From contig CP000068.1 of the NCBI GenBank assembly GCA_000002445.1, positions 1,152,001 to 1,216,000 of the forward strand: a stretch of 64,000 bases of DNA, written 5' to 3'. A program made the position numbers and the translations under genes. The notes beneath the pieces are model-generated. The model was given only the letters and a program-made list of their open reading frames with translations. It was not told where the DNA came from and did no database searches. This document shows positions 21,271 through 48,388 of this stretch, in pieces; the stretch's first letter is position 1; the number at the start of each line of letters is the position of its first letter. The stretch is from Trypanosoma brucei (lineage: Eukaryota).

Positions 21271-22440
21271 TTGAAACAAACATCCGTTGGTACAATGAGA
21301 CGGTTTGCACCACACCACATGCTGGTTACACGGAGTTTATGGCACTCTGCTGTCTTTTTTCGAGGACGGAGAGAAATGTTAAAACCCCTGGCGATGTCAT
21401 CAGAAACTCCCGCATGTGCTGTTGAGGAAGTTGCAACACATCCTCAAGTTTCAATTAATGAAAGTATTTGCAACTCACTTGACAACCTGCTCGGTGAAAC
21501 CGCTTCCCAGCGTGCTGCGGTTACGAGGGTCGGATCTCTACCATCATACTACAAACCGATGAACCTTCGTGGTGTATTGTATGAAGGCGATGTGGCACAA
21601 CAACTTGCGAATGCAGCGGAGTTACGAGGTTTCCGATCGCCTGTTTGGGCTACAAATGCATCATATATACGAGGGGGTTACACGGTGCTGGAATGTGAGG
21701 TTGGGGTTGAAGTGAGCACCTCGATGTTTAACGTGGTTCTTTACAACCTGCAGCAAACGAACTCTCCGGAGGCTGATTCATGCGTTGCGCTTGCGTCGGT
21801 GAAGGCCATGCCACTCTGCGCAACGGGGCGACCCTTCTCTCGAAGACTGCGGCTGGTGCTTATGAGTCACCCCTTCTATACACGATTCAAGTCACAATAT
21901 TGGGTAACTGAAGAGGAAGCTGCAGCACTTGGAACAATGGTGATGACAAGTGAGCGGGGGCGTTGTGTTCCCGTGCCCTGTCCTCCTACAGTGACTGAAA
22001 TGTCTTCCTCCACAAGCCGTGATCCTCGTGTTGAGGACAGCGATACTCCTCCAGGGGAATCTGCTGTTCCTTTGATGTTGTATAATGCGGAGCAATTGGA
22101 GAACCCCAATGCAGCAAGCAGTGAGACTTGTCCTCGAGTTGAATGCGTAAATGCCAATGGGAGGCGTTATAGCACTCTCTTGACTATTCACATGCGGCGG
22201 TATTGCCAACTGCACCAGTTGTGCACAGATCCCTTTGCAACATTTGTCACATGTGCCCGTCTCCGCTCTCTTGGAGGTGATATTGTACCTGGTGCCAGTG
22301 TTCCTCTTACTTTGGTTGTGAGAGATGAATTATTGACACTTTATCATGTGGATCAAACAACGATATCTAACACGTTATTTCAGCATGCCTTGTCTGGCCA
22401 GCGGAAGTGTATGGACCGGGTTTCTGTGATTCAAGTTTAG
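21271..22440 (+). CDS. Hypothetical protein with a probable mitochondrial presequence.
   Basis: The N-terminus 'MRRFAPHHMLVTRSLWHSAVFFRGRR' (from the second Met at 21295) is an Arg-rich, hydroxylated presequence with no acidic residues. A 389-codon ORF in polycistron orientation. No domain recognised. Confidence 0.5.
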   Translation: MKQTSVGTMRRFAPHHMLVTRSLWHSAVFFRGRREMLKPLAMSSETPACAVEEVATHPQVSINESICNSLDNLLGETASQRAAVTRVGSLPSYYKPMNLRGVLYEGDVAQQLANAAELRGFRSPVWATNASYIRGGYTVLECEVGVEVSTSMFNVVLYNLQQTNSPEADSCVALASVKAMPLCATGRPFSRRLRLVLMSHPFYTRFKSQYWVTEEEAAALGTMVMTSERGRCVPVPCPPTVTEMSSSTSRDPRVEDSDTPPGESAVPLMLYNAEQLENPNAASSETCPRVECVNANGRRYSTLLTIHMRRYCQLHQLCTDPFATFVTCARLRSLGGDIVPGASVPLTLVVRDELLTLYHVDQTTISNTLFQHALSGQRKCMDRVSVIQV

Positions 22441-26643: not shown

Positions 26644-27435
26644 ATGAAAGTAGAATCACCTCATTCGAACTATCAGCCACTTAACAGCGAGGAAGGAAGG
26701 TGGTTTCACCGGATACGAAACTTTATTATGGGAATAAACGTGTTTTTAATGGCATTTGCAGTTAGTGGACTTGTCGTTGGTTTCATAGAACTCGATGAAA
26801 TCGACTCTGCCATCAGGGAAATATGTTCTTCTTGTCAACACGCTCACGTCATTTACATGTCGAGTTTTGGTGCCCTTTTGTTATTATCTTTTCTGGGATT
26901 TGTTGCCCTTCATACGCGTAAGAGATGTTTGAGGATCTTGAACACTACGTGTTTGGTACTGGTGTTTATTCCATTAGTTTTCGGTTCAGTTTTATATGTT
27001 TTAATGAGCACGGAGCACATTAACATGCAATACGGGTGGAATTTGGTGGTTGCTGAGCGCAGTGACGACATGTGCAAGTTGGAGTTGCAATGGAAATGTT
27101 CTGGATGGAATAAACTATGTGCAACTCATTCCACTATTGGTTTGATAGATTTAAAACCGCTGGAGGGGACCGAAAAGGAAAATATCATTAATAACTTAAG
27201 TGTCGTTACGAATACCACGTCGTACTGCTCGGGGGCTGATGAAATATGTGCTTGTCCAATATGCACTGAAGATGACCAGAAATATATTGATAAGTTTGAC
27301 CAAACGTGTGAAATGGTTGTTATGGGTGCACTGCGATCACACTTGATTGTATTTCTTTTTGTGTCGCTTTGCGTAGTAGTTTTAACCGGCGCCGGTATTG
27401 TGGTGTCTGTTGCATATCCTCATGCAGAGTCGTGA
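26644..27435 (+). CDS. Four-TM membrane protein with a Cys-rich extracellular loop (tetraspanin-like topology).
   Basis: TM1 'INVFLMAFAVSGLVVGFI', TM2 'ALLLLSFLGFVALH', TM3 'LVLVFIPLVFGSVLYVLM', TM4 'LIVFLFVSLCVVVLTGAGIVVSV'. The loop between TM3 and TM4 carries 'CKLELQWKCSGWNKLCATHS...YCSGADEICACPICTEDDQKYIDKFDQTCE' (10 Cys). Confidence 0.5.
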   Translation: MKVESPHSNYQPLNSEEGRWFHRIRNFIMGINVFLMAFAVSGLVVGFIELDEIDSAIREICSSCQHAHVIYMSSFGALLLLSFLGFVALHTRKRCLRILNTTCLVLVFIPLVFGSVLYVLMSTEHINMQYGWNLVVAERSDDMCKLELQWKCSGWNKLCATHSTIGLIDLKPLEGTEKENIINNLSVVTNTTSYCSGADEICACPICTEDDQKYIDKFDQTCEMVVMGALRSHLIVFLFVSLCVVVLTGAGIVVSVAYPHAES

Positions 27436-29781: not shown

Positions 29782-32700
29782 ATGAAAATAGGAACAAAAG
29801 CTGAGCTCATTTTGCACGGGGGCGAATGTTTTAGCGGAGTTTCATTTGGTTATGAAGAAAGCGTTGCGGGAGAGGTTGTTTTTACCACAGGAATGGTTGG
29901 TTATCCTGAAAGTCTTACGGACCCTTCGTATCACGGTCAGATATTAGTGCTTACCGCACCCATGGTCGGAAATTATGGAATCCCTCCACTGGAGACGGAT
30001 CCTTTTGGAGTAACAAAATACTTCGAGAGCATGAATGGGGAGATTCGTGTGAGTGCGCTCGTCGTTTGCGAATGTTGTGAAGAACCTTCGCATTGGCAGA
30101 TGTATGAGACACTTGGTGCATGGCTAAAGCGAAATAAGGTACCAGGAATCATGATGGTGGACACTCGCAGTGTTGTACTGAGACTTCGGGAAATGGGTAC
30201 AGCTCTGGGAAAGGTTGTTATCAACGGCGCTGATGTGCCTTTTGTGGATCCTAATACACGCAACTTGGTAGAAGAAGTGAGCACAATAGCCCCTCAGTCC
30301 TATGGGCATGGTACATTGAGGATCCTCGTTATTGATATGGGTGTAAAATTAAATTCGTTGAGGTGCTTACTGCGGTATGATGTCACACTTACTGTTGTGC
30401 CACATGATTGGGATATAACGAAGGAAACATATGATGGTTTATTCATTTCTAACGGGCCAGGTAATCCTCAACTGTGTACCAAAACGATTGAAAATGTGCG
30501 ATGGGCTCTCACTCAAGAAAAACCGATATTCGGTGTTTGCATGGGTAATCACATGTTGGCCCTCGCAGCAGGAGGAACGACGTACAAGATGAAGTTTGGT
30601 CACCGAGGTCAGAACCAGCCATCGACATCCAATCAAGATGGACGTGTAGTAATTACAACGCAAAATCACGGGTTTGCCGTAGATTTCAAATCGTTGCCGC
30701 AGGGTGATTGGGAAGAGTACTTCTTTAACCCCAATGATCAATGTAATGAAGGGTTACGGCACCGCACGAAGCCCTTTTCATCAGTTCAGTTTCACCCTGA
30801 GGGTTGCTGTGGTCCACAGGACACCGAGTACCTTTTCGGAGAGTTTATTGACCAGGTGAAGCGTTCAAAAACGAAGTTGGCAGCACAGTTTAAACCCCGC
30901 AAGGTTTTGGTATTGGGTGCTGGCGGCATTGTTATTGCCCAAGCTGGCGAATTCGACTACAGCGGCTCCCAGTGCTTAAAGGCTCTGAGAGAGGAAGGTG
31001 TGAAGTCTATATTGGTTAATCCCAACATTGCCACTGTGCAGACAGATGATGAAATGGCTGACCAAGTGTATTTTGTACCCGTCACTCCTGAAGCTGTGGA
31101 ACGAGTGATTGAGAAGGAGCGTCCAGATGGTATTATGCTCGGATGGGGCGGGCAAACAGCACTCAACTGTGGGTTGCAGTTGGACAAACTTGGTGTCCTC
31201 AAAAAGTACAATGTGCAGGTTCTTGGAACAGCTATATCTACAATCACTGTGACCGAGGATAGGGAGCTCTTCCGCAACGCGCTTTTGCAGATAAATGAGC
31301 CTGTGGCAAAGTCCGTAGCAGTGACCAGTGTGGCGGAGGCATTAAAAGCAGCGGCAGACATCGGATTTCCAATGATGGTGCGAGCGGCTTTTTGCCTCGG
31401 TGGTCAAGGTAGCGGCATTGTAAATAGTGAAGAGGAACTGAGTAATAAAGTTGAGGTTGCCCTTACTGTGGCACCTCAAGTCTTACTTGAGGAAAGCGTT
31501 GCTGGTTGGAAGGAGATCGAGTACGAAATTGTCCGTGATATCCATGATAATTGCATTACGGTGTGCAACATGGAGAATTTTGACCCCATGGGCGTCCACA
31601 CAGGGGAGTCCATTGTTGTGGCCCCGTCTCAAACTTTGACAAACGAGGAATATCACATGTTGCGTACCGCAGCGATCAAAATCATCCGTCACCTTGGCGT
31701 GGTGGGCGAGTGCAACATTCAATACGGTTTGGAACCCCACTCGCGTCGTTACGTTGTTATTGAGGTAAACGCCCGCCTCTCACGTTCCTCCGCACTTGCG
31801 TCTAAGGCCACGGGTTATCCACTCGCACACGTTGCAACCAAAATAGCCCTTGGTAAGGGTCTGTTTGAAATTAAGAATGGTGTTACAAAAACAACGATGG
31901 CTTGCTTTGAACCCAGTCTTGATTACGTCACCGTCAAGGCTCCCCGTTGGGATGTGGCAAAGTTCAATATGGTGAGTCAAGAGATCGGGTCCATGATGAA
32001 GAGTGTTGGTGAAGTAATGGCCATCGGTCGTACATTTGAGGAGGCCGTGCAGAAGGCACTGCGAATGGTGGATCCATCGAATAACGGCTTTGACACTCCC
32101 AAAAGACTTGCTGAAATGGGTGACAAGTGGGACTACATGCGGGCGCTGCGCGTTCCTACGCCAGATCGCATCTTTGCGATTTGCCGTGCCTTGAAGGAAG
32201 GCATCACAGTGGATGAAATACATCGGTTAACTCGCATCGACAAATTTTTCCTCAACAAGTTACAACTCCTGATCGAGATGCAGAGGGAACTGACCACGCT
32301 ATACAGGGGTAAACTGGACACAATCACATATGACCACCTCCTTGCTATGAAAGCGCACGGTTTCAGCGACGTTCAGATTGCTGAGTACCTCCAGTGCACA
32401 ACTGACGATGTACGGAAACGGCGCTACAAGTTGAACATTACCCCCAAGGTGAAGCAAATCGATACAGTCGCTGGCGAATACCCCGCCGCGCAGTGTTGCT
32501 ATTTATACACCACCTACAACGCACAACACGATGATGTCGAATTCAACGATCGTATGTACGCCGTGCTTGGTTGTGGTGTGTACCGGATTGGCAGCAGCGT
32601 GGAGTTTGACTACGGTGGTGTCTTAGTCGCTCGTGAGCTCCGTCGACTCGGTAACAAAGTGATTTTGATTAATTATAACCCCGAAACAGTGTCCACAGAT

Positions 32701-35283
32701 TATGATGAATGTGACCGCCTGTACTTTGAAGAGGTGTCAGAGGAGACAGTGCTTGACATCCTGCTCAAAGAAAAGATTAGCGGTGTTATCATATCGCTGG
32801 GTGGACAAATTGTCCAAAATATGGCCCTTCGATTGAAAGAGCATGGGCTGCCGATCCTTGGGACAGATCCTGTAAACGTTGATAAGGCAGAAGATCGCAA
32901 CAAATTCTCGAAGATGTGCGATCAACTGGGTGTACCGCAGCCCGAATGGATTTTGTCAACAAGTGTTCAAGATGTTCACGCGTTCTGCCAGCGCGTCGGT
33001 TTCCCGACACTTGTGCGACCAAGCTATGTGTTGAGCGGCTCTGCTATGGCTGTCATATCGTCTCCGGAAGATATTGACCGCTACCTCACTAAGGCTTCGT
33101 TGGTTTCTGGTACTCATCCTGTTGTGGTGAGCAAGTACTACGAAGGTGCAATGGAATACGACGTTGATATCGTTGCCCATCACGGCCGTGTGCTCTGTTA
33201 CGCGATTTGCGAGCATTTGGAAAATGCTGGTGTACACTCAGGAGATGCCACGATGTTCCTTCCTCCACAGCACACCAAAAAGGAGGTCATGAAACGCATA
33301 TACGAAGCAGCCACACAAATTGCCGGAGAGTTGGATGTTGTCGGACCCATGAACGTTCAGTTCTTGCTCACTAAGGACGAGCAGCTGCGCGTGATTGAGG
33401 CGAACATCCGCAGCTCACGTTCCGTGCCGTTTGTTTCCAAGACGCTTGGCATATCGTTCCCGGCCGTCATGGTTTCCGCGCTTCTATCGCGTCCCGACTC
33501 CGAGCTTGTGCCAATCCGTCGTGCTAAGATGACTCACATTGGTTGTAAGGCTCCTATGTTCTCATTCAACCGACTCGCTGGCGCTGACCCTATCCTCGGT
33601 GTGGAGATGGCATCCACGGGTGAAATTGGCGTATTTGGCTGTGACAAACGCGAGGTGTTTCGTAAAGCAATGCTTTGCCAGAATTTCCGGTACCCGACAA
33701 AAGGTGTTTTTATCAGCTCTGATGTGGACGCAGTCACTGAGGAGCTCCTCCCCCACCTCGAGAAGATTTCAAAGACGTTACCACTTTTTGCATCAACACA
33801 CACCGGTGCTGTGCTCACCAAGCACGGCATTCCGCACACTGTCTTAACTCAAAGGCATGAGGATGGTGACAATCCCACATACGAGGTGGAGCTCGCGGCG
33901 AGGCGATTTGACCTCGTTATTCAGCTACGAAATAAAAGGAAAGATTTCATTCTGCGAAGCTGCACGCGGGAAAATGCACCACCAGACTACTGGGTCCGCC
34001 GCCTTGCTGTTGACTACAACGTAGCACTCCTTACCGAGCCCAACGTTGTGAAGATGTTCTGCGAAACCCTTGACATCATTGGTGATATCGAGATCGAACC
34101 ATTCCGCTACTACGTACCTCGCGTATATCACAAAATAGAGAGCAATAACTGCACTATGCTGCGCCACCACAAGGTTGGTCTCTGTATTAATCCTACGATG
34201 GATAGCAAGGTCCTCGCCATACGTATGCGCGAAGAGAAAATCGATCTCACATGCTTCCACGCGTCTCTCGGTGGATCGGTCACGAGCAGCGAGGCCTTTG
34301 CTGAGGAGTTCCGGTCACTTAAGGTTCCCGTGGAAGTTGTAGATCTCCGTAACGAAATGGCAGAACTCGCCTTCGATATGGTGATGGCTCTCATCGCAGA
34401 AGAAGATAACAGGTGGCACTTGCCGGCGCTGGCTGAACACGTCATTGGCGTGCACCTCCTCACTGCGATGCAGGAGCGCGGTGTTACTGTTGTTGCACAG
34501 TGCTCATCACAAGGGAGGAAGGGAATGAATTTTGAACGTTATGCCCGCATGCTTCAGCCGAAGATGGGTGTTTATAGCCCGTGGCGAGACCAACGTATGC
34601 TAAGTGATTTCCCTACAGAGGCTGAAAAAATCAATTTTCTTGAAAAACATGAGGTAAAGGTTCAATCAGCAGCGATGGAGACACACAGTAGTATCTGTGG
34701 CATTACATGTGGATTGGGCGGCGAAGTCGCCACGCCTACACCACGGATGGTTCTCCCTGTGTCTAAATGTCCCGCCACACCCGAGTTTTGCTCTATTGCA
34801 TTCCGTGCGGCACGCTGCGTCCGCATCAACGACGTCGATGTCACACCGGTTCAGGCCCTGCAGCTGGCGAACGAAATTGCCGGCCGCAATGGTGTCGGTC
34901 TTGAACACACTCAAAACAATGAGATGTGCGAGGCGCCAGGTATGACACTACTTTCCAAAGCTCTGCACTTTATCTATGACGTGTGTTTCGATCGCGGTAA
35001 CACTGATGCCTTCCGTATGTACTCCCGGCATGTGTCATCCATGCTTTCCTCACGCGGTTTCGTTGAGCGCCAAACACTATCTTCATTGGAGGCTATCCGT
35101 CATTTAACAGCGGATGTGGACGGTGTGGTGGATGTGGAAGTGAACCGAGGTGAAGTGATATTCCTAAAGGTATCGCACGTCTCACGGCCCGTAAAGCTTC
35201 GACTAACCAAAATCATGACTGACGAAGAGCTCGAGGAGGTGTTCCAACCCGGTGACGGCACGTTCGGTGATGTACAATGGTAG
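29782..35283 (+). CDS. PYR1: Carbamoyl-phosphate synthetase II: a glutamine amidotransferase-CPS fusion (kinetoplastid pyr1) with an additional ~385-residue C-terminal extension. Approximate domain spans: GATase ~29782-30870, CPS large chain ~30898-34120, extension ~34126-35283.
   Basis: Class-I GATase motifs '[18 protein letters not shown]' and '[13 protein letters not shown]'. CPS large-chain motifs '[25 protein letters not shown]', the ATP-grasp pair '[15 protein letters not shown]' / '[16 protein letters not shown]', the oligomerisation domain and the MGS-like domain 'KGVFISSDV...[17 protein letters not shown]'. 1833 codons. No ATCase domain is fused. Confidence 0.95.
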   Translation: [1833 protein letters not shown]

Positions 35284-35770
35284 GCCGCTGACTAAAAATA
35301 CGTATGCGTTTGAGTGTAGTGAATGTGAGTTGACGTAACTTCCTTAGAAAACTTATTTTAGTCAACGCTCCTCTTGACGAGATACTGAATGTGCCTGAAG
35401 TGGAAAGTGAAAGCGGGGAGCGGTGTGGATGTATTTCACTTATGCTTCCAATTTTCCCGTTTCAACATGATACCGCGAGGATATGAAGGAAAAGGGACGT
35501 GAAGGAAGCAACCGAAGTCAGAACATTTCTTACTGCTAGTGGGATGGTCCCACAAATCAACAGCGTGGGCGCCGAAATCGAGTGGTCATTTTCACAATAC
35601 CGTTTACCACATTCTCCGTTCTGTCAATTGTGCCTACACAAATTTATTTTATCCCGTTTCCATTCTTGCACCTTCTCCGTTTTTTTTGGTTTTATTTTTC
35701 ATTTTTAGTTATGCCATTTCTCCACCCATTTTATTTTGTTTGGCCCCTCTCTTTCTTCCCCTGTCCCTCT

Positions 35771-35783
35771 CCCCCCCCCCCCC
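35771..35783. repeat. C13 homopolymer within a CT-rich tract, in the CPSII downstream region.
   Basis: ctctcccccccccccctctccccctc. Confidence 0.9.
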
Positions 35784-36185
35784 TCTCCCCCTCTTTCCTC
35801 TTTTTTTTTCTTTACTACGGTCAGGTTGAGATTTCTGAAAGGAGGGAGGGTAAGGGACAGGGGAGGGATGTAAGCGTCACGAGGGTACTGAATTCAAAAC
35901 GGAAGCAACGTTTAAAAAATAAACATACACACACACACACAAACGTTCGTTGATAACACTATTGCCGGTATATTTTTGTTAAGGAATCAAACAAGAGAGA
36001 GGGAGAGGAAATGATAGCATGCGACGGTATCTAACTTTACTTCCCTCATCGATATATGGTAATTCCCTTCCCTGAAAACGAATCGAGGGTAAGCGCGGCA
36101 TTAAGAATTCCCCACCGTGTTTTTTTTTGATTTGTGTTACTAAACTTCTCAAATGAATCATGAGAAGTAAAAAGGAAGGAAGGAA

Positions 36186-36197
36186 GGGGGGGGGGGG
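36186..36197. repeat. G12 homopolymer.
   Basis: ggaaggggggggggggtaaag. Confidence 0.9.
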
Positions 36198-36977
36198 TAA
36201 AGTCATTGTTTTATGTGTATGCGCCTCCGTGTGTTGCGGAACCCTGCAAAAGGAGAAAGAACCGTACCGCAGAGCCGGTGTAAATTTACCCTGAAGTCAC
36301 GTAGACGAGTAAATGGTGGTTACTAATAAGTAATATAATTAATTTAACTGCACAGTATAGATAAGAGGACGGGTTGGGCGTGAAGAAAAAAAATGAGAAC
36401 GGTTACAATGGAGAAAAGGGGAGGGTAAGCTGACTTTTTCGGCGTGTCAAAAAATTAGTATAATAATCGATTCTTTCTTTGCTTCTCTCCTTCTTTTTGT
36501 TTTTTCCTCTTCTTCACGCGCTCTCCTTCTCTTTATTTTTACCGTCTTTGACCCCTTTTTCCCCTCCTCGTTTGGCCGTGGCTGTGATAACTGATTTCAC
36601 TTCAACTCCCTAAAGGAATATAGTGGAAGCAAAGATTTGGGAGCGTGACTAGAAATGTTTTGTGCACAGCCCTCCCACATGGCGAATAATTGTAGCGGCA
36701 GTTTCTAACGGTTATATGTTTAACTGCATTATGCCCCTCTCTCACTTGGCGCCATCTCTGTGTTACAACATGCGTTTGATCTATCAGTTTATTATATTGT
36801 TTTCCCTCAAACACATGCGAAGCGAGTAAGAGTTGAAAATGTTACGGCAAAGGCCAATGGGCACTGGTAGAAGGCAACGGATCGCGGTTATGAAAGTTCT
36901 TGTGTGTATGTTTATGTGGGGGTGGGGGTGGAAGTTGTGGTAGTGTCATCTCGTGTACATTGTTTAAGTCGCTTCAA

Positions 36978-37026
36978 CCTTGTTTCTTTTTTTTTTCCTT
37001 TTCTTCTTCTTCGCTATCTGATTGAG
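36978..37026 (+). promoter_or_regulatory. Polypyrimidine tract plus AG upstream of OMPDC-OPRT: a candidate trans-splice acceptor.
   Basis: 'ccttgtttcttttttttttccttttcttcttcttcgctatctgattgag', ~155 nt upstream of the ATG. Confidence 0.4.
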
Positions 37027-37180
37027 TTTTCATACTAAGTTGGATCCGCTGCTTGACTTGTATATATAAAGCAGCAGTATTCTAGGTAAAGAAGACCAAA
37101 TAAAAAAGAAAGAGGTAAGTAAAAATTGAAGACACATATATACAAACCAACAAGTGTTGTGAAAGGCAAACAGTTACAAA

Positions 37181-38557
37181 ATGTCCTCTACTTTCTTTGA
37201 TATGCTTAACAAACGGGCGAAAACCACGTTGCTCTGTATAGGCTTAGACCCACGGGCTGACACTGCAGCGGCAGCAGTTCTCGAGTGCAAGCGGATTATT
37301 GACACCACATCCAACTATGCGGCGGCATATAAGCCTAACGCAGCCTTTTTTGAGTGTTTTGGAGCAGCCGGTTGGTCGGCACTCGAAGAAGTGATCGCTC
37401 ACATTCCTCAGGACATTCCCGTTTTGTTGGACGCGAAGCGTGGTGATATCGCTGACACGGCAGAGGCATATGCGAAATCTGCCTTCCAACGCCTCAAGGT
37501 ACACGCCATAACTGCTTCACCATACATGGGGGGTGATTCCCTGCAACCCTTTCTGAAGTACTCATCGAAGGGAGTATTTGTTTTGTGTAAAACCTCCAAC
37601 AAGGGTTCCAGTGAGCTTCAATGCCTACAAACAAATGGGCAGTCTCTATATGAAACCATTGCCGAACGTGCTGAGAGAGTTTGGAATTACAACCGTAATG
37701 TCGGTTTGGTTGTTGGTGCCACGGACCCTGTTGCCCTCTCCCGCGCACGAGCATGTGCCCCCACATTGTGGATTTTGGTTCCTGGTGTTGGAGCACAAGG
37801 CGGCGACCTGAAGGCAGCACTGCAAGCTGGGCTGCGTACGGACGGGAGCGGTCTGCTAATTAATGTCTCACGTGCAGTAACCCAAGCGAAAGATCCGCGC
37901 GCGGTGGCACAAAAGCTCTGCGAGGATATTAACCGTATCCGGCTGCGCACAAACAATGTGTCGGAAATGGCAGGCGCACTTGTGGCATCGCAATGTGTAC
38001 GCTTTGGTAAGTTCACTCTGAAGTCAGGGAAAACATCGCCCATTTACATTGATCTGCGCCGTCTCGTAACACATCCGTTGATAATGCGTTTGGTGGCCCG
38101 TCACTACGCGCGTATATTAACCACTATGCAGTTTGACCGCATTGTGGGTTTGCCCTACGCTGCGCTCCCTATTGCGACCGCCATTTCACTTGAGATGAAT
38201 GTTCCTCTTATCTACCCACGCCGGGAGAGGAAAGATTATGGTACGAAGGGTCTCATTGAGGGAGATTTTCAGAAAGGCGACCGTGTGGTAATTGTTGACG
38301 ACCTCGTGACAACAGGTGAGACAAAAGTAGAGGCTATTGAGAAGCTGAAGGCAGCCGGGCTTCATATTGTTTCCATAGTTGTGCTCATTGACCGAGAGAT
38401 GGGCGCCAAAAAGTTCCTCGGTAGTCTTGGTTATGAGTTCCATGCAGTTGCCACACTTTCTCAATTACTCCCGCTTTGGTTACAGCAAGGCGCCATTACG
38501 GATAAGCAGATGCGAGAAGTCACCGCCTTCATGTTGGAATCCACTAGCAAGCTGTAA
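37181..38557 (+). CDS. PYR6-5: Bifunctional OMP decarboxylase (N-terminal) and orotate phosphoribosyltransferase (C-terminal) with a C-terminal SKL. This is the kinetoplastid pyr6-5 arrangement, reversed relative to metazoan UMP synthase.
   Basis: OMPDC motifs 'LLCIGLDPRAD' and 'VLLDAKRGDIADT' (DxKxxD catalytic Lys). OPRT begins near 37967 'MAGALVASQCVRFGKFTLKSGKTSPIYIDLR', with the PRPP-binding loop 'VVIVDDLVTTGETK'. The last three codons before the stop encode S-K-L (PTS1). Confidence 0.95.
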   Translation: MSSTFFDMLNKRAKTTLLCIGLDPRADTAAAAVLECKRIIDTTSNYAAAYKPNAAFFECFGAAGWSALEEVIAHIPQDIPVLLDAKRGDIADTAEAYAKSAFQRLKVHAITASPYMGGDSLQPFLKYSSKGVFVLCKTSNKGSSELQCLQTNGQSLYETIAERAERVWNYNRNVGLVVGATDPVALSRARACAPTLWILVPGVGAQGGDLKAALQAGLRTDGSGLLINVSRAVTQAKDPRAVAQKLCEDINRIRLRTNNVSEMAGALVASQCVRFGKFTLKSGKTSPIYIDLRRLVTHPLIMRLVARHYARILTTMQFDRIVGLPYAALPIATAISLEMNVPLIYPRRERKDYGTKGLIEGDFQKGDRVVIVDDLVTTGETKVEAIEKLKAAGLHIVSIVVLIDREMGAKKFLGSLGYEFHAVATLSQLLPLWLQQGAITDKQMREVTAFMLESTSKL

Positions 38558-39670: not shown

Positions 39671-40654
39671 ATGGCGGAGCTGCAACCTGTAACTAGTTTG
39701 AAGGGGAAGAGCATAATAACCGCAGCTCAGTTCACCCGCCCCGATATTGATGCTCTCATTCGCCTTGCCACTGCACTTAAAGAGAAGATATGTGCGGGAG
39801 AGGTGTTACGTTTTCTTGAGGGTCGCATCATGACACCTCTATTCTTTGAGGATTCCTCCCGCACGCTTAATTCCTTTTGTGCGGCCATGGCGAGGCTTGG
39901 AGGTCGCGTTGTGTACTTTAAAGCCGAAACCTCCTCCGTGAACAAAGGCGAGACACTCGGGGATACGGTTCGGACGCTGGATTCCTACAGTGACGTACTT
40001 GTGCTGCGTCACCCAAAGCAGGAGGCCATTACGGAAGCGGTTGCCAAAGCTACGCATCCCGTTTTGAATGCCGGGAATGGGGCCGGTGAGCACCCAACAC
40101 AAGCACTTCTCGACGTGTTAACAATACATTCTGAACTGGGCCGCGTTGACGGTAGCACAATCGCGATGATTGGTGATCTTAAGATGGGACGTACGGTCCA
40201 CTCACTACTGAAGTTGCTGGTGCGTAACTTTAAAATGAAAACCATCTTCTTTGTTGCGCCGGATGCACTTCAAATGCCACAGGATGTGGTGGACTCACTA
40301 AAGCAGGAAATAGCAGCAAGTGGCGTGACAATTCGAAGTAGCAACTCGCTGACAGAAGAAATTTTGGGACAATGCGATGTGTTGTACGCCACCCGTCTGC
40401 AGAAGGAGCGCTTTGCCGCAGCGGCTCTGGACGAAGCGAAGGCGTTACAGGCATTTGAAGCGGCAAAGGCGGATATCGTTATTAATGCCGAGCGCATGAA
40501 GAAGGCGAAGGCGAAGATGATTGTCATGCACCCACTTCCCCGTAATGATGAATTGTGCACCAGTGTGGACGAGGACCCACGCGCGGCATACTTTAGGCAG
40601 ATGCAGTACGGTATGTATATGCGGATGGCCATACTTTACAGTGTTCTCGCTTAA
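39671..40654 (+). CDS. PYR2: Aspartate carbamoyltransferase, catalytic chain only.
   Basis: 'FFEDSSRTLNSF' (carbamoyl-phosphate site), 'GEHPTQALLD', 'LKMGRTVHSL' and 'MHPLPRNDEL' are the ATCase signatures. 327 aa. Confidence 0.95.
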   Translation: MAELQPVTSLKGKSIITAAQFTRPDIDALIRLATALKEKICAGEVLRFLEGRIMTPLFFEDSSRTLNSFCAAMARLGGRVVYFKAETSSVNKGETLGDTVRTLDSYSDVLVLRHPKQEAITEAVAKATHPVLNAGNGAGEHPTQALLDVLTIHSELGRVDGSTIAMIGDLKMGRTVHSLLKLLVRNFKMKTIFFVAPDALQMPQDVVDSLKQEIAASGVTIRSSNSLTEEILGQCDVLYATRLQKERFAAAALDEAKALQAFEAAKADIVINAERMKKAKAKMIVMHPLPRNDELCTSVDEDPRAAYFRQMQYGMYMRMAILYSVLA

Positions 40655-41463: not shown

Positions 41464-42405
41464 ATGAGTTTGAAAGTTAATATTCTCGGACATGAGTTTT
41501 CCAACCCGTTTATGAATGCTGCGGGAGTTCTCTGCACAACAGAGGAGGACTTGCGTCGCATGACGGAGAGCGAAAGTGGTTCACTTATTGGAAAGAGTTG
41601 CACACTCGCCCCTCGTACGGGTAATCCTGAGCCACGCTATTTTGGTTTGCCACTAGGGAGTATTAACTCAATGGGGCTTCCAAACCTTGGTGTCGACTTT
41701 TATTTGAGTTATGCTGCACAGACGCACGATTACAGTAGGAAGCCGCTGTTCCTCTCCATGTCCGGCTTGTCTGTAGAGGAGAGCGTGGAGATGGTGAAGA
41801 AACTCGCTCCGATAACGAAGGAAAAGGGTACCATTCTTGAACTAAACCTCTCTTGCCCGAATGTACCTGGGAAACCACAGGTCGGATATGACTTTGACAC
41901 AACACGTACGTATCTTCAGAAGGTGTCTGAGGCATACGGTTTACCGTTTGGGGTGAAGATGCCACCCTATTTTGATATTGCTCACTTTGACATGGCAGCC
42001 GCCGTGCTAAACGATTTTCCTCTCGTGAAGTTTATCACGTGTGTGAACAGTATCGGGAACGGCCTCGTCATCGATCCAGCCAACGAGACAGTCGTGATAA
42101 AACCTAAGCAGGGATTCGGTGGACTTGGAGGGAAATACGTTCTCCCAACTGCACTAGCGAATGTGAATGCCTTTTTCCGTCGTTGCCCCGACAAGTTGGT
42201 GTTCGGATGTGGCGGTGTTTACAGTGGAGAAGAAGCTTTTCTACACATCCTCGCCGGTGCCTCTATGGTACAAGTCGGCACTGCTCTGCATGATGAAGGT
42301 CCCATCATATTTGCTCGACTCAACAAGGAACTGCAAGAAATTATGACAAACAAGGGGTATAAAACCCTTGATGAGTTCCGCGGACGCGTGAAGACGATGG
42401 ATTGA
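41464..42405 (+). CDS. PYR4: Dihydroorotate dehydrogenase, family 1A (cytosolic, fumarate-dependent type with an active-site Cys).
   Basis: 'NAAGVLCTTEEDL', 'GSINSMGLPNLG' and 'ELNLSCPNVPGKPQ' (Cys catalytic base, hence family 1). From memory, the sequence looks essentially identical to the crystallised T. brucei DHODH (unverified). 313 aa. Confidence 0.95.
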   Translation: MSLKVNILGHEFSNPFMNAAGVLCTTEEDLRRMTESESGSLIGKSCTLAPRTGNPEPRYFGLPLGSINSMGLPNLGVDFYLSYAAQTHDYSRKPLFLSMSGLSVEESVEMVKKLAPITKEKGTILELNLSCPNVPGKPQVGYDFDTTRTYLQKVSEAYGLPFGVKMPPYFDIAHFDMAAAVLNDFPLVKFITCVNSIGNGLVIDPANETVVIKPKQGFGGLGGKYVLPTALANVNAFFRRCPDKLVFGCGGVYSGEEAFLHILAGASMVQVGTALHDEGPIIFARLNKELQEIMTNKGYKTLDEFRGRVKTMD

Positions 42406-45712: not shown

Positions 45713-48388
45713 ATGGGGATAATAGGTCTGCGCAAATTCATTGATTCCTCATCGTGTTCGAAACTCCTTCATATTGATACGCAAGACGAGGATGAAGAGA
45801 CTTTACAGCGCCCACCAGAACGGAATCTGTCGAGGGCCTCAAGCACACTGCAGGATGAATACCAGGGGATTGAAGGTCCTGTGCTCTGCTCAAGTGATAC
45901 AGTTACGCCACACGCGGATCATGTTTTAGTTGATTTGAACTGTATCGTTCACTCCAGTCTTAGAAAAAGTACTGTCAGCGGCGATGTGAGCGCGGCTGGT
46001 GCCGCCTCCATGACGAAGCGCGATCTTATACAAGCGGTGCTGCAACGCCTGCGGTTTCTACTTACGCGTGTAGTTGTTCCAACTGTCTCTCTGACAATTT
46101 GCATTGATGGCCCCGCACCGTACGCCAAGTTGGGCACCCAACGAATGCGCAGGCGTCAAGTTGGACTTCTCGACACCAGTAGTGCACAGCAGTTGTCCTC
46201 TCTTGCCATTACCCCGGGTTCGTTGCTTCTAGTTGAGTTGGAGAATGCGTTGGCGGCACAGTTTAAACTTCGCAACGGGAAGGGCTTCTTAGCGGAGTAT
46301 GTTCCCGTTTTTCTTCATGGTTCGACAGTTGCCGGTGAGGGCGAAGCGAAAATCGCTCGGTCTCTCGCATTCCTCGCTTCGTGTGGTTTCGGGCGCCACT
46401 CGGAAGCTAGTCGTCGGTACAACCCTAATGATACCATAGTTGTTATTGGCAATGACATCGATCTCACGCTCACATGTATTGGTGCCACTCAATATCACAA
46501 TTTCTCCGTGTTAGGCCCATCGTCTATGCATTTGATAGATGTATCAACTCTTCTTTACCGTTGGCTCTACAGTGGCGTCTTAACGGAGAAGCAACAACTT
46601 CCTAGTTGCGGGGAGTTCCGGTTAACTGCACGCGAACTCGCATCAGTTCGCGTGGACTTTGTGTTTCTGTTTCTTCTTAATGGTGGTGATCACTATGCTG
46701 GGGCTGGGGAAGTGGCGCATATCTTGTGGCGTCGGTACCGTACCGTTCGCGGGGCTTCGAGCATGAAGCGCTCGCTTGTTTCTGAGGACCTCTGTTCTGT
46801 TGACGTTGATATGCTGGCCGACGTGTTGCAATCTGGTGAATATACCGGGGATGTGGACACGAAAGTCGGGATGCAACTTCTTAGGGCGACTCTCTGGTCA
46901 CTACAAACGACGGTTTCTGGAGCATGCCCCGATTACCGTTTTGTTCCAAGAATATGCACTGATGCGGGGGGACCGCATCTCAACCATGTGCGGGCTGCAG
47001 TAGCTCACTGCCACCGTAAACGGCGACCTATTTCTTTTATTGCACGAAAGACGTTTACGCGGTGTAGTAGCAGCGACCCCAAGGCTAATGCGCAACTCGT
47101 GGACGACAATGAGAAGTCGCGTCCGCCGCTTCCACTAACGCCCCTGGAAACTCTGGTTGCTCTGATGCCCACAGAGGCATCACTGCCCACAAGCGTCGCA
47201 ACTGCTCTCCGGTCATCCCGAAAGTTTGAGCACATCGCACACGTTCTTGTATCAAGTAATGATGCTCATGCGGTTGCCGACGCTGCTCGTGAGGCCGTAG
47301 AAGCCGCCGATGCATATCTAACGGCCAGCGAAAGATACTTGCGTGATTTCACAGACCCCGTTCAAATCAATGTTCCACAGAAAGCGAAACGTCTTTCCAG
47401 GCATGAGCAACACCGTATGCTGGCGACTACAGGGACGATTACCGTGGAGCAACCCATGCCAGTCGTGCGCCGCGTTCAGATGCCAGAGTCTTTTCGCTAT
47501 CTCGGTGTGGATTATCCGACATACGTGAAGGATTTGATCTTCTTCTCCCCGTTGGATCTCTCTGCTTCTGGTGAAGCGGCAGTGGAAGAAGCGGAAATTT
47601 CTGCTGGTGCCGATACCAGCTGCCACACCACTGGCAACCCGTATTTGGGACACGAAAACAGCAGTTTCATAACTGATATCAAGCACGCTATCATCTCTCG
47701 TGATTGTGTGGCCGGCGTCTCAAAGACGCCTTCCAACATGCGTCGCGTGCCTGCCCACCCCAGTCTTCCTGAAGCTACGTCACTCAAGGAAGTGTGGGCG
47801 GGGAAGAAGCCGGCTAATGTTAAGCAGGCACATCGGGCTGAAGGTGCTGAGAGAAACCGACATGATGGGGCTATGAAAAATGGCACTAATCATCACAATG
47901 AAGGTAAAACCGTAACTGGAGAAAGTATGGAAGAGCTGAGGAGGCACTTCCTTCGCAAGAAAGACAAGGCCTTCGTCAAGGAAGTCAAGCAGTTCCTGGG
48001 AAGCGATGACTTTGATAAGGACTGGGTAGTGCGTGGCAGGAAGAAACCAGAGACACGAGGGAAGGAAAAGCTAGACGCGAAAAAAAATAACAAATCCGGG
48101 AAGAAGAATAGTGTGGTGAAAACTAAGGCTACCAAGCGAAGCAGTACAAAAGGAAACGTTAAGAAGAAGGTTAAAACGAATAAAAAGAAAAGGGGCAGTA
48201 AAGGTAAGCAGTCGACTCCAACACGGGGTGCCGAAATCTCGCAGGCTCCTGCAGAAGGTGACGTACCACCACTCAAGCGCAGCCGAGAGGATTCACAAAC
48301 TGGTGGGAACGAAAACACGCGGCACGATGACTCAAAACCACAGAGCCGAAACAAGCGACAGCGGAAGGTACAGGACCATCAAAGATGA
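45713..48388 (+). CDS. XRN-family 5'-3' exoribonuclease with a Lys-rich basic C-terminal tail. From memory it may be the XRNB paralogue, but this is not verified.
   Basis: N-terminal 'MGIIGLRKFI' (compare XRN 'MGVPxFFRWL'). 'VLVDLNCIVHSS' matches XRN 'YLDMNGIIH'. 'VFLHGSTVAGEGEAKIARSLAF' matches XRN 'LSDANVPGEGEHKIMDYIR'. 'VVIGNDIDLTLTCIG' matches XRN 'GLDADLIML'. The acidic catalytic residues are retained. The C-terminus carries ~25 Lys in the last 100 residues. Confidence 0.7.
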   Translation: MGIIGLRKFIDSSSCSKLLHIDTQDEDEETLQRPPERNLSRASSTLQDEYQGIEGPVLCSSDTVTPHADHVLVDLNCIVHSSLRKSTVSGDVSAAGAASMTKRDLIQAVLQRLRFLLTRVVVPTVSLTICIDGPAPYAKLGTQRMRRRQVGLLDTSSAQQLSSLAITPGSLLLVELENALAAQFKLRNGKGFLAEYVPVFLHGSTVAGEGEAKIARSLAFLASCGFGRHSEASRRYNPNDTIVVIGNDIDLTLTCIGATQYHNFSVLGPSSMHLIDVSTLLYRWLYSGVLTEKQQLPSCGEFRLTARELASVRVDFVFLFLLNGGDHYAGAGEVAHILWRRYRTVRGASSMKRSLVSEDLCSVDVDMLADVLQSGEYTGDVDTKVGMQLLRATLWSLQTTVSGACPDYRFVPRICTDAGGPHLNHVRAAVAHCHRKRRPISFIARKTFTRCSSSDPKANAQLVDDNEKSRPPLPLTPLETLVALMPTEASLPTSVATALRSSRKFEHIAHVLVSSNDAHAVADAAREAVEAADAYLTASERYLRDFTDPVQINVPQKAKRLSRHEQHRMLATTGTITVEQPMPVVRRVQMPESFRYLGVDYPTYVKDLIFFSPLDLSASGEAAVEEAEISAGADTSCHTTGNPYLGHENSSFITDIKHAIISRDCVAGVSKTPSNMRRVPAHPSLPEATSLKEVWAGKKPANVKQAHRAEGAERNRHDGAMKNGTNHHNEGKTVTGESMEELRRHFLRKKDKAFVKEVKQFLGSDDFDKDWVVRGRKKPETRGKEKLDAKKNNKSGKKNSVVKTKATKRSSTKGNVKKKVKTNKKKRGSKGKQSTPTRGAEISQAPAEGDVPPLKRSREDSQTGGNENTRHDDSKPQSRNKRQRKVQDHQR

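Follow-up and report, generated by a model that had tools for sequence, protein, structure and literature searches.

A probable catalytically dead argininosuccinate synthase domain retained at the C-terminus of the pyrimidine carbamoyl phosphate synthase of Trypanosoma brucei

In CAD and in fungal URA2, the allosteric domain of the pyrimidine-pathway carbamoyl phosphate synthase (CPS) is directly followed by a dihydroorotase (DHOase) or DHOase-like domain, and in URA2 the domain at the DHOase position is catalytically dead (Souciet et al. 1989, as cited in PMC8442968). The real DHOase is encoded separately in fungi, and likewise in kinetoplastids. Trypanosomatids have repeatedly kept inactive homologues of enzymes as functional subunits, among them the prozymes, dead paralogues by which AdoMetDC, deoxyhypusine synthase and PRMT1 are activated. 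Argininosuccinate synthase (ASS; EC 6.3.4.5) is an N-type ATP pyrophosphatase and, in its usual form, a free-standing tetrameric enzyme of ~410 aa. Here, we describe the C-terminal extension of the glutamine-dependent CPS (CPSII) of Trypanosoma brucei, encoded within a stretch of 64,000 nucleotides (assembly GCA_000002445.1, contig CP000068.1, positions 1,152,001 to 1,216,000 of the forward strand; hereafter the window, to which all nucleotide positions refer unless a contig is named). In our view, this extension (aa ~1449-1833) is very probably a full-length ASS homologue with both subdomains, which has lost catalysis and has been retained as part of CPSII.

CPSII is encoded by a single open reading frame (ORF; 29782-35283, plus strand) of 1833 codons and a stop, and its 1833-aa product is 100% identical to XP_845050.1 (Tb927.5.3800) of T. 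brucei TREU927, which is annotated as a glutamine-hydrolysing carbamoyl phosphate synthase; the same protein sequence is also present on record CZPT02000299.1 (assembly GCA_001457755.2). Pfam places the two ATP-grasp halves and the oligomerisation domain of the CPS large chain at aa 373-1250, followed by a weak match to the MGS-like allosteric domain (PF02142, E=5e-4, aa 1334-1418). An earlier, sequence-only reading of the window had claimed that the frame continues well past CPS, and this is borne out: position 34126 is codon 1449, and the extension of ~385 residues, up to aa 1833, therefore lies exactly where it had been placed. Both peptides that this reading quoted from the extension are also present, at aa 1545-1578 and aa 1487-1506. 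The base composition of the extension is coding-like, with a GC content at third codon positions (GC3) of 0.54, compared with a GC3 of 0.51 in the CPS part and an overall GC content of 0.42 in the downstream intergenic DNA. In T. brucei gambiense DAL972, the gene is annotated as two proteins, a 1624-aa CPS (P0163) and a 202-aa 'hypothetical protein, unlikely' (P0171). The latter is 100% identical to the end of the ORF (34675-35283, the last 202 codons) and is automatically named argininosuccinate synthase in UniRef; the split probably stems from a frameshift or from an artefact of assembly or annotation.

The identity of the extension is indicated by profile, pairwise and structural comparisons. 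Both Pfam domains of ASS are found in order and above their gathering thresholds (PF00764 at aa 1486-1625 with 28.5 bits and PF20979 at aa 1659-1794 with 32.6 bits, the cut-off being 27 in each case), and the same pair is precomputed for the CPSII orthologue on the metagenomic contig L002. The TIGR00032 (argG) model is matched over positions 1-349 of 394 (E=4.9e-26). Of the 5.8 billion proteins in a database, those that match best are stand-alone ASS proteins of ~410-426 aa (E down to 2.6e-53, 30-34% identity, 86-89% query cover), and the top matches that carry a species or genus name come from the diplonemids Diplonema ambulator, D. japonicum, D. papillatum and Rhynchopus euleeides and from the euglenid Eutreptiella. 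These are followed by ASS proteins of Kiritimatiellia and Planctomycetes of the same sequence subtype, and it is this 'CVSGGLDSK / GATGRGNDQ' subtype of diplonemids, euglenids and some bacteria that is the closest ASS kin of the extension. A direct BLASTP comparison with the D. papillatum enzyme yields E=2e-62 and 33% identity over 351 aa, the Thermus thermophilus enzyme (PDB 1j1z) aligns from end to end (E=5.5e-15), and hhalign gives a probability of 99.4% for the pairing with canonical ASS. The AlphaFold2 (AF2) model of the extension (predicted local distance difference test score, pLDDT, of 77; predicted template modelling score, pTM, of 0.76) combines a Rossmann-like HUP subdomain with an ASS C-subdomain, and its top 24 PDB matches in Foldseek are all ASS structures (template modelling score, TM, of 0.72-0.76, E ~1e-21; 1vl2, 1k92, 1kh1, 2nz2). 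When a deeper alignment is used (AF2, aa 1290-1833), the core of the ASS-like domain rises to a pLDDT of 88-97. The extension is homologous to ASS (1j1z, 1vl2, 2nz2) over its whole length, with the two-subdomain fold in common, and it keeps the structural motifs VDL, FERY, PWRD, ANxIAGRNGxG and EAPGxxLL.

In contrast to real ASS, the extension is a C-terminal domain that lacks the PP-loop, the aspartate and citrulline ligands and a basic loop. Measured against an alignment of 21 functional ASS sequences, from human to bacteria (residue numbers are those of human ASS1, whose reference sequence was checked and agrees fully with PDB 2nz2), the T. brucei domain retains 11 of the 43 invariant columns and has lost the other 32. 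The PP-loop SGGLD(S/T) reads NPTMDS (S12N, G13P and G14T), although S12, G13 and G14 are invariant in 21/21 functional sequences, and it reads SGSTNS and DFDVDS in the orthologues P0164 and P0169, respectively. Within the HGATG(K/R)GNDQxR motif, G117 is deleted and the substitutions H116Q, T119S, N123R, D124K and R127N are found; Y87R and R95E are further replacements. The citrulline-lid region YSxDxNLxHxSxEG is six residues shorter and carries S180E, S189T and E191G, whereas ENRxxGxKSRGxY has been reduced to NNEMC through a deletion of eight residues (E270N and Y282C, with R272, K277 and R279 deleted). Human T119, N123, D124, R127, Y87, S180, S189, E270 and Y282 are aspartate/citrulline-binding residues according to the UniProt P00966/HAMAP annotation and the crystal-structure papers on ASS. 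As the ATP-binding PP-loop, the aspartate/citrulline residues and the loop with three invariant basic residues have all been lost, the domain is not expected to make argininosuccinate and is best described as a pseudoenzyme domain. The motifs are dead in all orthologues and their replacements differ from one orthologue to another, which argues that the former active site is unconstrained; the citrulline-lid region is both the least conserved (18-27% among orthologues) and the least confidently modelled (pLDDT 35-41) part of the domain.

Orthologues were sought by an exhaustive HMMER search over 1.84 billion cluster representatives, followed by cluster look-ups. Other CPSII C-termini with an ASS-like domain are P0164 (1552 aa, contig L003, GC 48%) and P0169 (1070 aa, contig L002, GC 65%), and further fragments with such a C-terminus are P0168, P0021 and P0024. 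The frame is uninterrupted and the junction identical in T. brucei TREU927, in T. equiperdum and on two independent metagenomic contigs, as well as in two C-terminal fragments. Compared with T. brucei, P0164 and P0169 are 69% and 65% identical in the CPS part and 49% and 39% identical in the ASS-like part. Among the orthologues, 94 of the 385 extension positions (24%) are invariant, of which about half coincide with the structural core of ASS and 45, including those in the tail, are specific to the family; the C-terminal ASS-like subdomain is 44-52% identical. The linker and lead-in are conserved as IEIEPF(R/S)xYVPKxxxKxExNNCTxL (aa 1449-1462 are 79% and 50% identical between orthologues). At the other end, a C-terminal tail, VF(Q/T)(P/V)G(D/N)G(T/S)FxD(V/I/F)(Q/E)W-COOH, is 64-71% identical, with its V, F, G, G, F, D and W residues invariant in five sequences. 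The tail is predicted to be disordered in isolation (AF2, pLDDT ~35), and its motif was found nowhere else in the 64-kb window. Given that the dead domain, the conserved linker and the tail occur together in at least four other, diverged CPSII genes of kinetoplastid type, they appear to be maintained by selection. Only one long CPS-ASS representative, P0018, was seen among the 50%-identity cluster representatives (HMMER), where clustering may hide others, and a metagenome pattern scan derived from the pseudo-ASS alignment returned at least 80 loci, all of them ordinary ASS genes (23-33% identity), and is uninformative on the rarity of the fusion. A word-indexed protein search showed no other CPS-ASS fusions, which is weak evidence, as this search is lossy and its first pass missed the 100%-identical P0171 together with all long CPSII proteins.

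Other accounts of the extension have to be weighed against a dead and retained ASS domain. Were the domain an active ASS, CPSII would be a bifunctional CPS-ASS enzyme of arginine synthesis, and both the full-length homology, with two Pfam domains above their gathering scores, and the common place of CPS and ASS in carbamoyl-phosphate/arginine metabolism would be in keeping with this. We nevertheless consider it highly improbable: the PP-loop is destroyed, every annotated aspartate/citrulline ligand is replaced or deleted, most of the invariant positions are gone, and the TIGR00032 score of 91.9 bits lies so far under the equivalog cut-off of 268.2 that active ASS is very unlikely on this count as well. 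In addition, the conversion of citrulline to arginine is possible only in Leptomonas pyrrhocoris among the kinetoplastids analysed in PMC7052976. The sequence-only reading had seen in the extension a vestigial, dead DHOase (amidohydrolase) domain like that of fungal URA2, implying a CAD-like ancestor. This has the position of the domain in its favour and nothing else, as CAD and URA2 have their DHOase or DHOase-like domains at the same place. Pfam detects no amidohydrolase/DHOase domain (PF01979) in the extension even at E<=1, PF00764 and PF20979 being matched instead; with a genuine kinetoplastid DHOase as query (L002:3592-4764, with HxH and VTPHHL motifs), the best BLASTP hit to the extension has E=21; and hhalign of the profile of the extension family against this DHOase gives a probability of 0.16%. 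Structure prediction led to the alpha/beta HUP and C-domain fold of ASS, with no (beta/alpha)8 TIM barrel among the top matches. The genuine DHOase that adjoins CPSII in relatives has an HxH motif (DCHVHF), whereas no Zn-ligand position (HxH, carboxylated Lys, His, His, Asp) can be placed in the extension by any alignment obtained. No tool reproduced the alignment to CAD DHOase motifs that had been made by eye, and the quoted segments align convincingly with ASS motifs: a 12-letter segment with the ASS strand and adenine-loop segment IDVICFTADLGQ, the segment starting WHLP with the ASS segment YWQSTGIGRHV...VNVLSHGATGRGNDQ, and the 20-letter segment read as DHOase with ASS ...VNVLSHGATGRGNDQMRFERY. 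A lack of amidohydrolase similarity combined with a confident match to an unrelated domain thus defeats the DHOase reading on the very terms in which it was proposed. We regard it as ruled out, and with ASS as the parent enzyme a CAD-like ancestor is left unsupported.

That the extension is a decaying relic without function, or an assembly or annotation artefact that joins two genes, would be in line with the missing catalytic residues, the faster evolution of the ASS-like part than of the CPS part and the two-protein annotation (1624 aa and 202 aa) in T. b. gambiense. Both versions are very unlikely, however, in view of the same uninterrupted junction in all the sources listed above, a quarter of positions invariant at an overall identity of only 39-49%, a strongly conserved linker and tail, and the coding-like composition. 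If the dead ASS domain is instead retained for a purpose, it could act as a sensor, that is, as a ligand-binding or allosteric module that is rigidly coupled through the short linker to the CPS allosteric domain and modulates CPSII upon sensing a metabolite, for example a nucleotide or an amino acid. It is fused directly behind the allosteric domain through a short and highly conserved linker, the orthologues share a conserved part of the adenine-loop region, TC(F/Y)H(A/G)(D/S)LG, and the nucleotide feedback regulation of Crithidia CPSII differs from that of mammalian CPSII (PMC5803862). All known ligand-binding residues of ASS have been lost, however, with replacements that are not conserved between orthologues, and both conservation and order are lowest in what was the substrate lid, so that we consider a sensor unlikely. 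A non-catalytic scaffold or oligomerisation role we would place at somewhat less than an even chance.

Several features point to such a structural role. Lemke and Howell reportedly recognised, in 2001, the C-terminal subdomain of real ASS as a multimerisation domain, and it is this type of subdomain that is well conserved among the CPSII orthologues. The conserved C-terminal peptide, which is predicted to be disordered and ends in Trp, resembles a docking motif or a swapped arm, and the domain sits where CAD has its DHOase and URA2 its dead DHOase-like domain. Furthermore, CPSII, aspartate carbamoyltransferase (ATCase) and DHOase of T. cruzi co-immunoprecipitate although they are separately encoded (review PMC5803862; PMC7052976). 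Genes for candidate partners lie close by, with ATCase in the window and DHOase directly downstream of CPSII on two environmental contigs. In this model, the ASS scaffold and the new C-terminal tail would serve as a non-catalytic structural module, which could set the oligomeric state of CPSII or dock the separately encoded ATCase and DHOase. It would thereby do the same docking or structural job as the dead DHOase-like domain of URA2, having arrived at it independently and from a different parent enzyme. The suggestion of a dead, enzyme-derived docking module made in the sequence-only reading therefore stands in so far as a dead enzyme-derived domain does follow the CPS allosteric domain; its parent is ASS and not DHOase, and docking is only a possible role. 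In a more far-reaching proposal, the dead ASS domain and a C-terminal docking peptide might nucleate a non-covalent, CAD-like metabolon of CPSII, ATCase and DHOase, or set its oligomeric or allosteric state, and might be at once a convergent counterpart of CAD and URA2, a fossil of an arginine-pathway CPS-ASS fusion in the euglenozoan ancestor and a parasite-specific handle on pyrimidine synthesis that the host lacks; this combination is possible, but we hold it to be less likely than not.

A number of points weigh against the views taken here. An alignment of ASS homologues underlies the AF2 models, and the fold match depends on the sequence evidence for that reason. After aa ~1800, no similarity to the C-terminal tetramer-forming helix or arm of ASS is found (12% identity to Diplonema ASS), and in the absence of this oligomerisation helix, tetramerisation of the ASS type cannot simply be assumed. 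In the AF2 prediction for aa 1290-1833, the allosteric part, for which there were no alignment rows, did not fold (pLDDT <50). The phyletic range covered is that of T. brucei and four environmental sequences. Finally, in gel filtration of Leishmania and Crithidia material, the three enzymes run separately (as cited in PMC5803862), and any complex may thus be weak or lineage-specific rather than tight and universal.

With respect to its origin, the closest functional relatives of the extension by best pairwise similarity are the diplonemid and euglenid ASS proteins, and judging from this similarity the domain may be derived from a euglenozoan ASS. Neighbour-joining places the pseudo-ASS sequences in a clade of their own (bootstrap support 100%) inside the ASS subtype common to euglenozoans and some bacteria; the position of this clade next to long-branch environmental bacterial sequences has 63% support and is probably due to long-branch attraction. 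For the stand-alone ASS of trypanosomatids, a grouping with Firmicutes and a probable horizontal origin have been reported (PMC3846528). In the simplest scenario, an ancestral ASS gene of euglenozoan type would have been fused to a CPS gene, both belonging to carbamoyl-phosphate/arginine metabolism; the fused ASS would have lost catalysis as kinetoplastids lost arginine synthesis, and the dead domain would have been kept for a new structural function.

When compared with known systems, URA2 and T. brucei CPSII are alike in having a dead, enzyme-derived domain directly C-terminal to a glutamine-dependent pyrimidine CPS. The two domains are analogous and not homologous: that of URA2 is an amidohydrolase TIM barrel and that of CPSII has the HUP fold of ASS, its parent enzyme coming from the arginine pathway and not, as in URA2, from the pyrimidine pathway. 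Moreover, URA2 continues into a fused ATCase, whereas the T. brucei ORF stops at 35283 and ATCase is encoded by a separate ORF (39671-40654). A prozyme is a polypeptide of its own and partners an active paralogue from its family, whereas the dead domain of CPSII is fused to an unrelated enzyme. As no conversion of citrulline to arginine is known in T. brucei (PMC7052976), the domain is probably without an active ASS partner. The ASS fold has also been reused outside argininosuccinate synthesis, namely in the nitrile synthetase ArtA (PDB 9leh/9lei) and in bacterial nonribosomal peptide synthetases (NRPSs). ArtA matches the model of the extension with a TM of ~0.7 at 11-13% sequence identity (Foldseek), and an NRPS of Rugosimonospora africana (P0042, 2021 aa) has an N-terminal ASS-like domain at aa 15-360. 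ArtA is presumably an active enzyme, going by its PDB title only, whereas the CPSII domain is without adenylation motifs.

Downstream of CPSII and on the same strand, the window contains the rest of the kinetoplastid pyrimidine cluster, that is, a fusion of orotidine monophosphate decarboxylase and orotate phosphoribosyltransferase (OMPDC-OPRT, or UMPS), then ATCase, then dihydroorotate dehydrogenase (DHODH); their coordinates are listed with those of the CPSII domains in Table 1. On both L002 and L003, a separate and genuine DHOase gene lies directly downstream of CPSII (L002:3592-4767; L003:4820-5122), and on L002 the gene after it encodes an OMPDC-OPRT with a terminal SKL, which is a hallmark of kinetoplastids. 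Neither a DHOase gene nor a remnant of one was found in the 1.9-kb CPSII-UMPS spacer (35284-37180) or in the rest of the 64 kb (tblastn best E=6). As the gene is present here in relatives and not detectable in the T. brucei window, it appears to have left the cluster in T. brucei. Elsewhere in the window are ORFs for a Tc-38 (p38) domain protein (21271-22440), a tetraspanin-family protein (26644-27435) and a homologue of the XRN 5'-3' exonuclease (45713-48388), all on the same strand, as expected in a trypanosomatid polycistronic unit.

Table 1. Features of the CPSII gene and of the downstream pyrimidine genes (nucleotide positions in the window; aa positions in CPSII)
Feature	Position	Strand	Basis
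Complete CPSII gene: glutamine amidotransferase (GATase), CPS large chain and ASS-like extension in one ORF	29782..35283	+	Pfam; identity to XP_845050.1
CPS small-chain N-domain and class-I glutamine amidotransferase (aa 9-357)	29806..30852	+	PF00988 E=2e-42; PF00117 E=3e-48
CPS large chain (aa 373-1418): two pre-ATP-grasp/ATP-grasp halves, oligomerisation domain, MGS-like allosteric domain	30898..34035	+	PF25596, PF02786, PF02787, PF02142
Short conserved linker and lead-in (aa 1432-1462), from allosteric domain to ASS-like domain	34075..34167	+	Near-identical in P0164 and P0169
ASS-like N-terminal nucleotide-binding (HUP) subdomain, probably inactive (aa 1463-1625)	34168..34656	+	PF00764; aligns to 1j1z from residue 5; pLDDT 80-95
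Degenerate PP-loop CINPTMDSK (aa 1468-1476), compared with the (A/C)xSGGLD(S/T)x ATP-pyrophosphatase signature	34183..34209	+	S12N, G13P, G14T
Degenerate counterpart of the ATP/aspartate/citrulline-binding motif (S/A)HGATG(K/R)GNDQxRFE (aa 1572-1585)	34495..34536	+	
Degenerate, poorly conserved loop in the citrulline-binding YSxDxNLxHxSxEG region, with 6-residue deletion (aa 1626-1660)	34657..34761	+	
ASS-like C-terminal (catalytic/multimerisation-type) subdomain (aa 1661-1800)	34762..35181	+	PF20979; pLDDT ~85-97
QNNEMC, left from ENRxxG(T/M)KSRG(V/I)Y after 8-residue deletion (aa 1710-1716)	34909..34929	+	
Conserved extreme C-terminal tail (aa 1820-1833), in place of the ASS C-terminal oligomerisation helix	35239..35280	+	
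OMPDC-OPRT fusion with reversed domain order and C-terminal SKL (glycosomal type 1 peroxisomal targeting signal, PTS1)	37181..38557	+	PF00215, PF00156
ATCase, candidate CPSII partner	39671..40654	+	PF02729, PF00185
DHODH	41464..42405	+	PF01180 E=1.5e-77

CPSII has been described as GATase and CPS only, both in a 2018 review of trypanosomatid pyrimidine metabolism (PMC5803862) and in a 2011 analysis of gene fusions in T. brucei, which examined this very gene and reported only CPS and GATase domains; a fifth of the protein has thus been left effectively unexplained. The searchable full-text literature yielded no paper that mentions such a domain in CPSII; the original T. cruzi pyr1 papers lie outside it, so that an earlier description of the ASS-like domain is possible. 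The Pfam matches above threshold and the automatic UniRef name mean that the similarity is visible in public domain databases, and what is new is the interpretation of the extension as a dead ASS domain and not its detectability. Recognising the domain as dead ASS corrects the DHOase idea and guards against its automatic mis-annotation as ASS, as has happened to the T. b. gambiense fragment in UniRef. How the first three pyrimidine enzymes, which are separately encoded, are assembled is an open question (PMC5803862, PMC7052976), and the dead ASS domain is a testable candidate element for the oligomerisation of CPSII or the docking of ATCase and DHOase. As a drug target, the de novo pyrimidine pathway is either validated or a candidate in T. 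cruzi, Leishmania and T. brucei, and the domain offers a parasite-specific surface that is absent from human CAD. The CPS-ASS fusion would, in addition, testify to an unusual connection, made in evolution, of the arginine branch of carbamoyl-phosphate metabolism with its pyrimidine branch.

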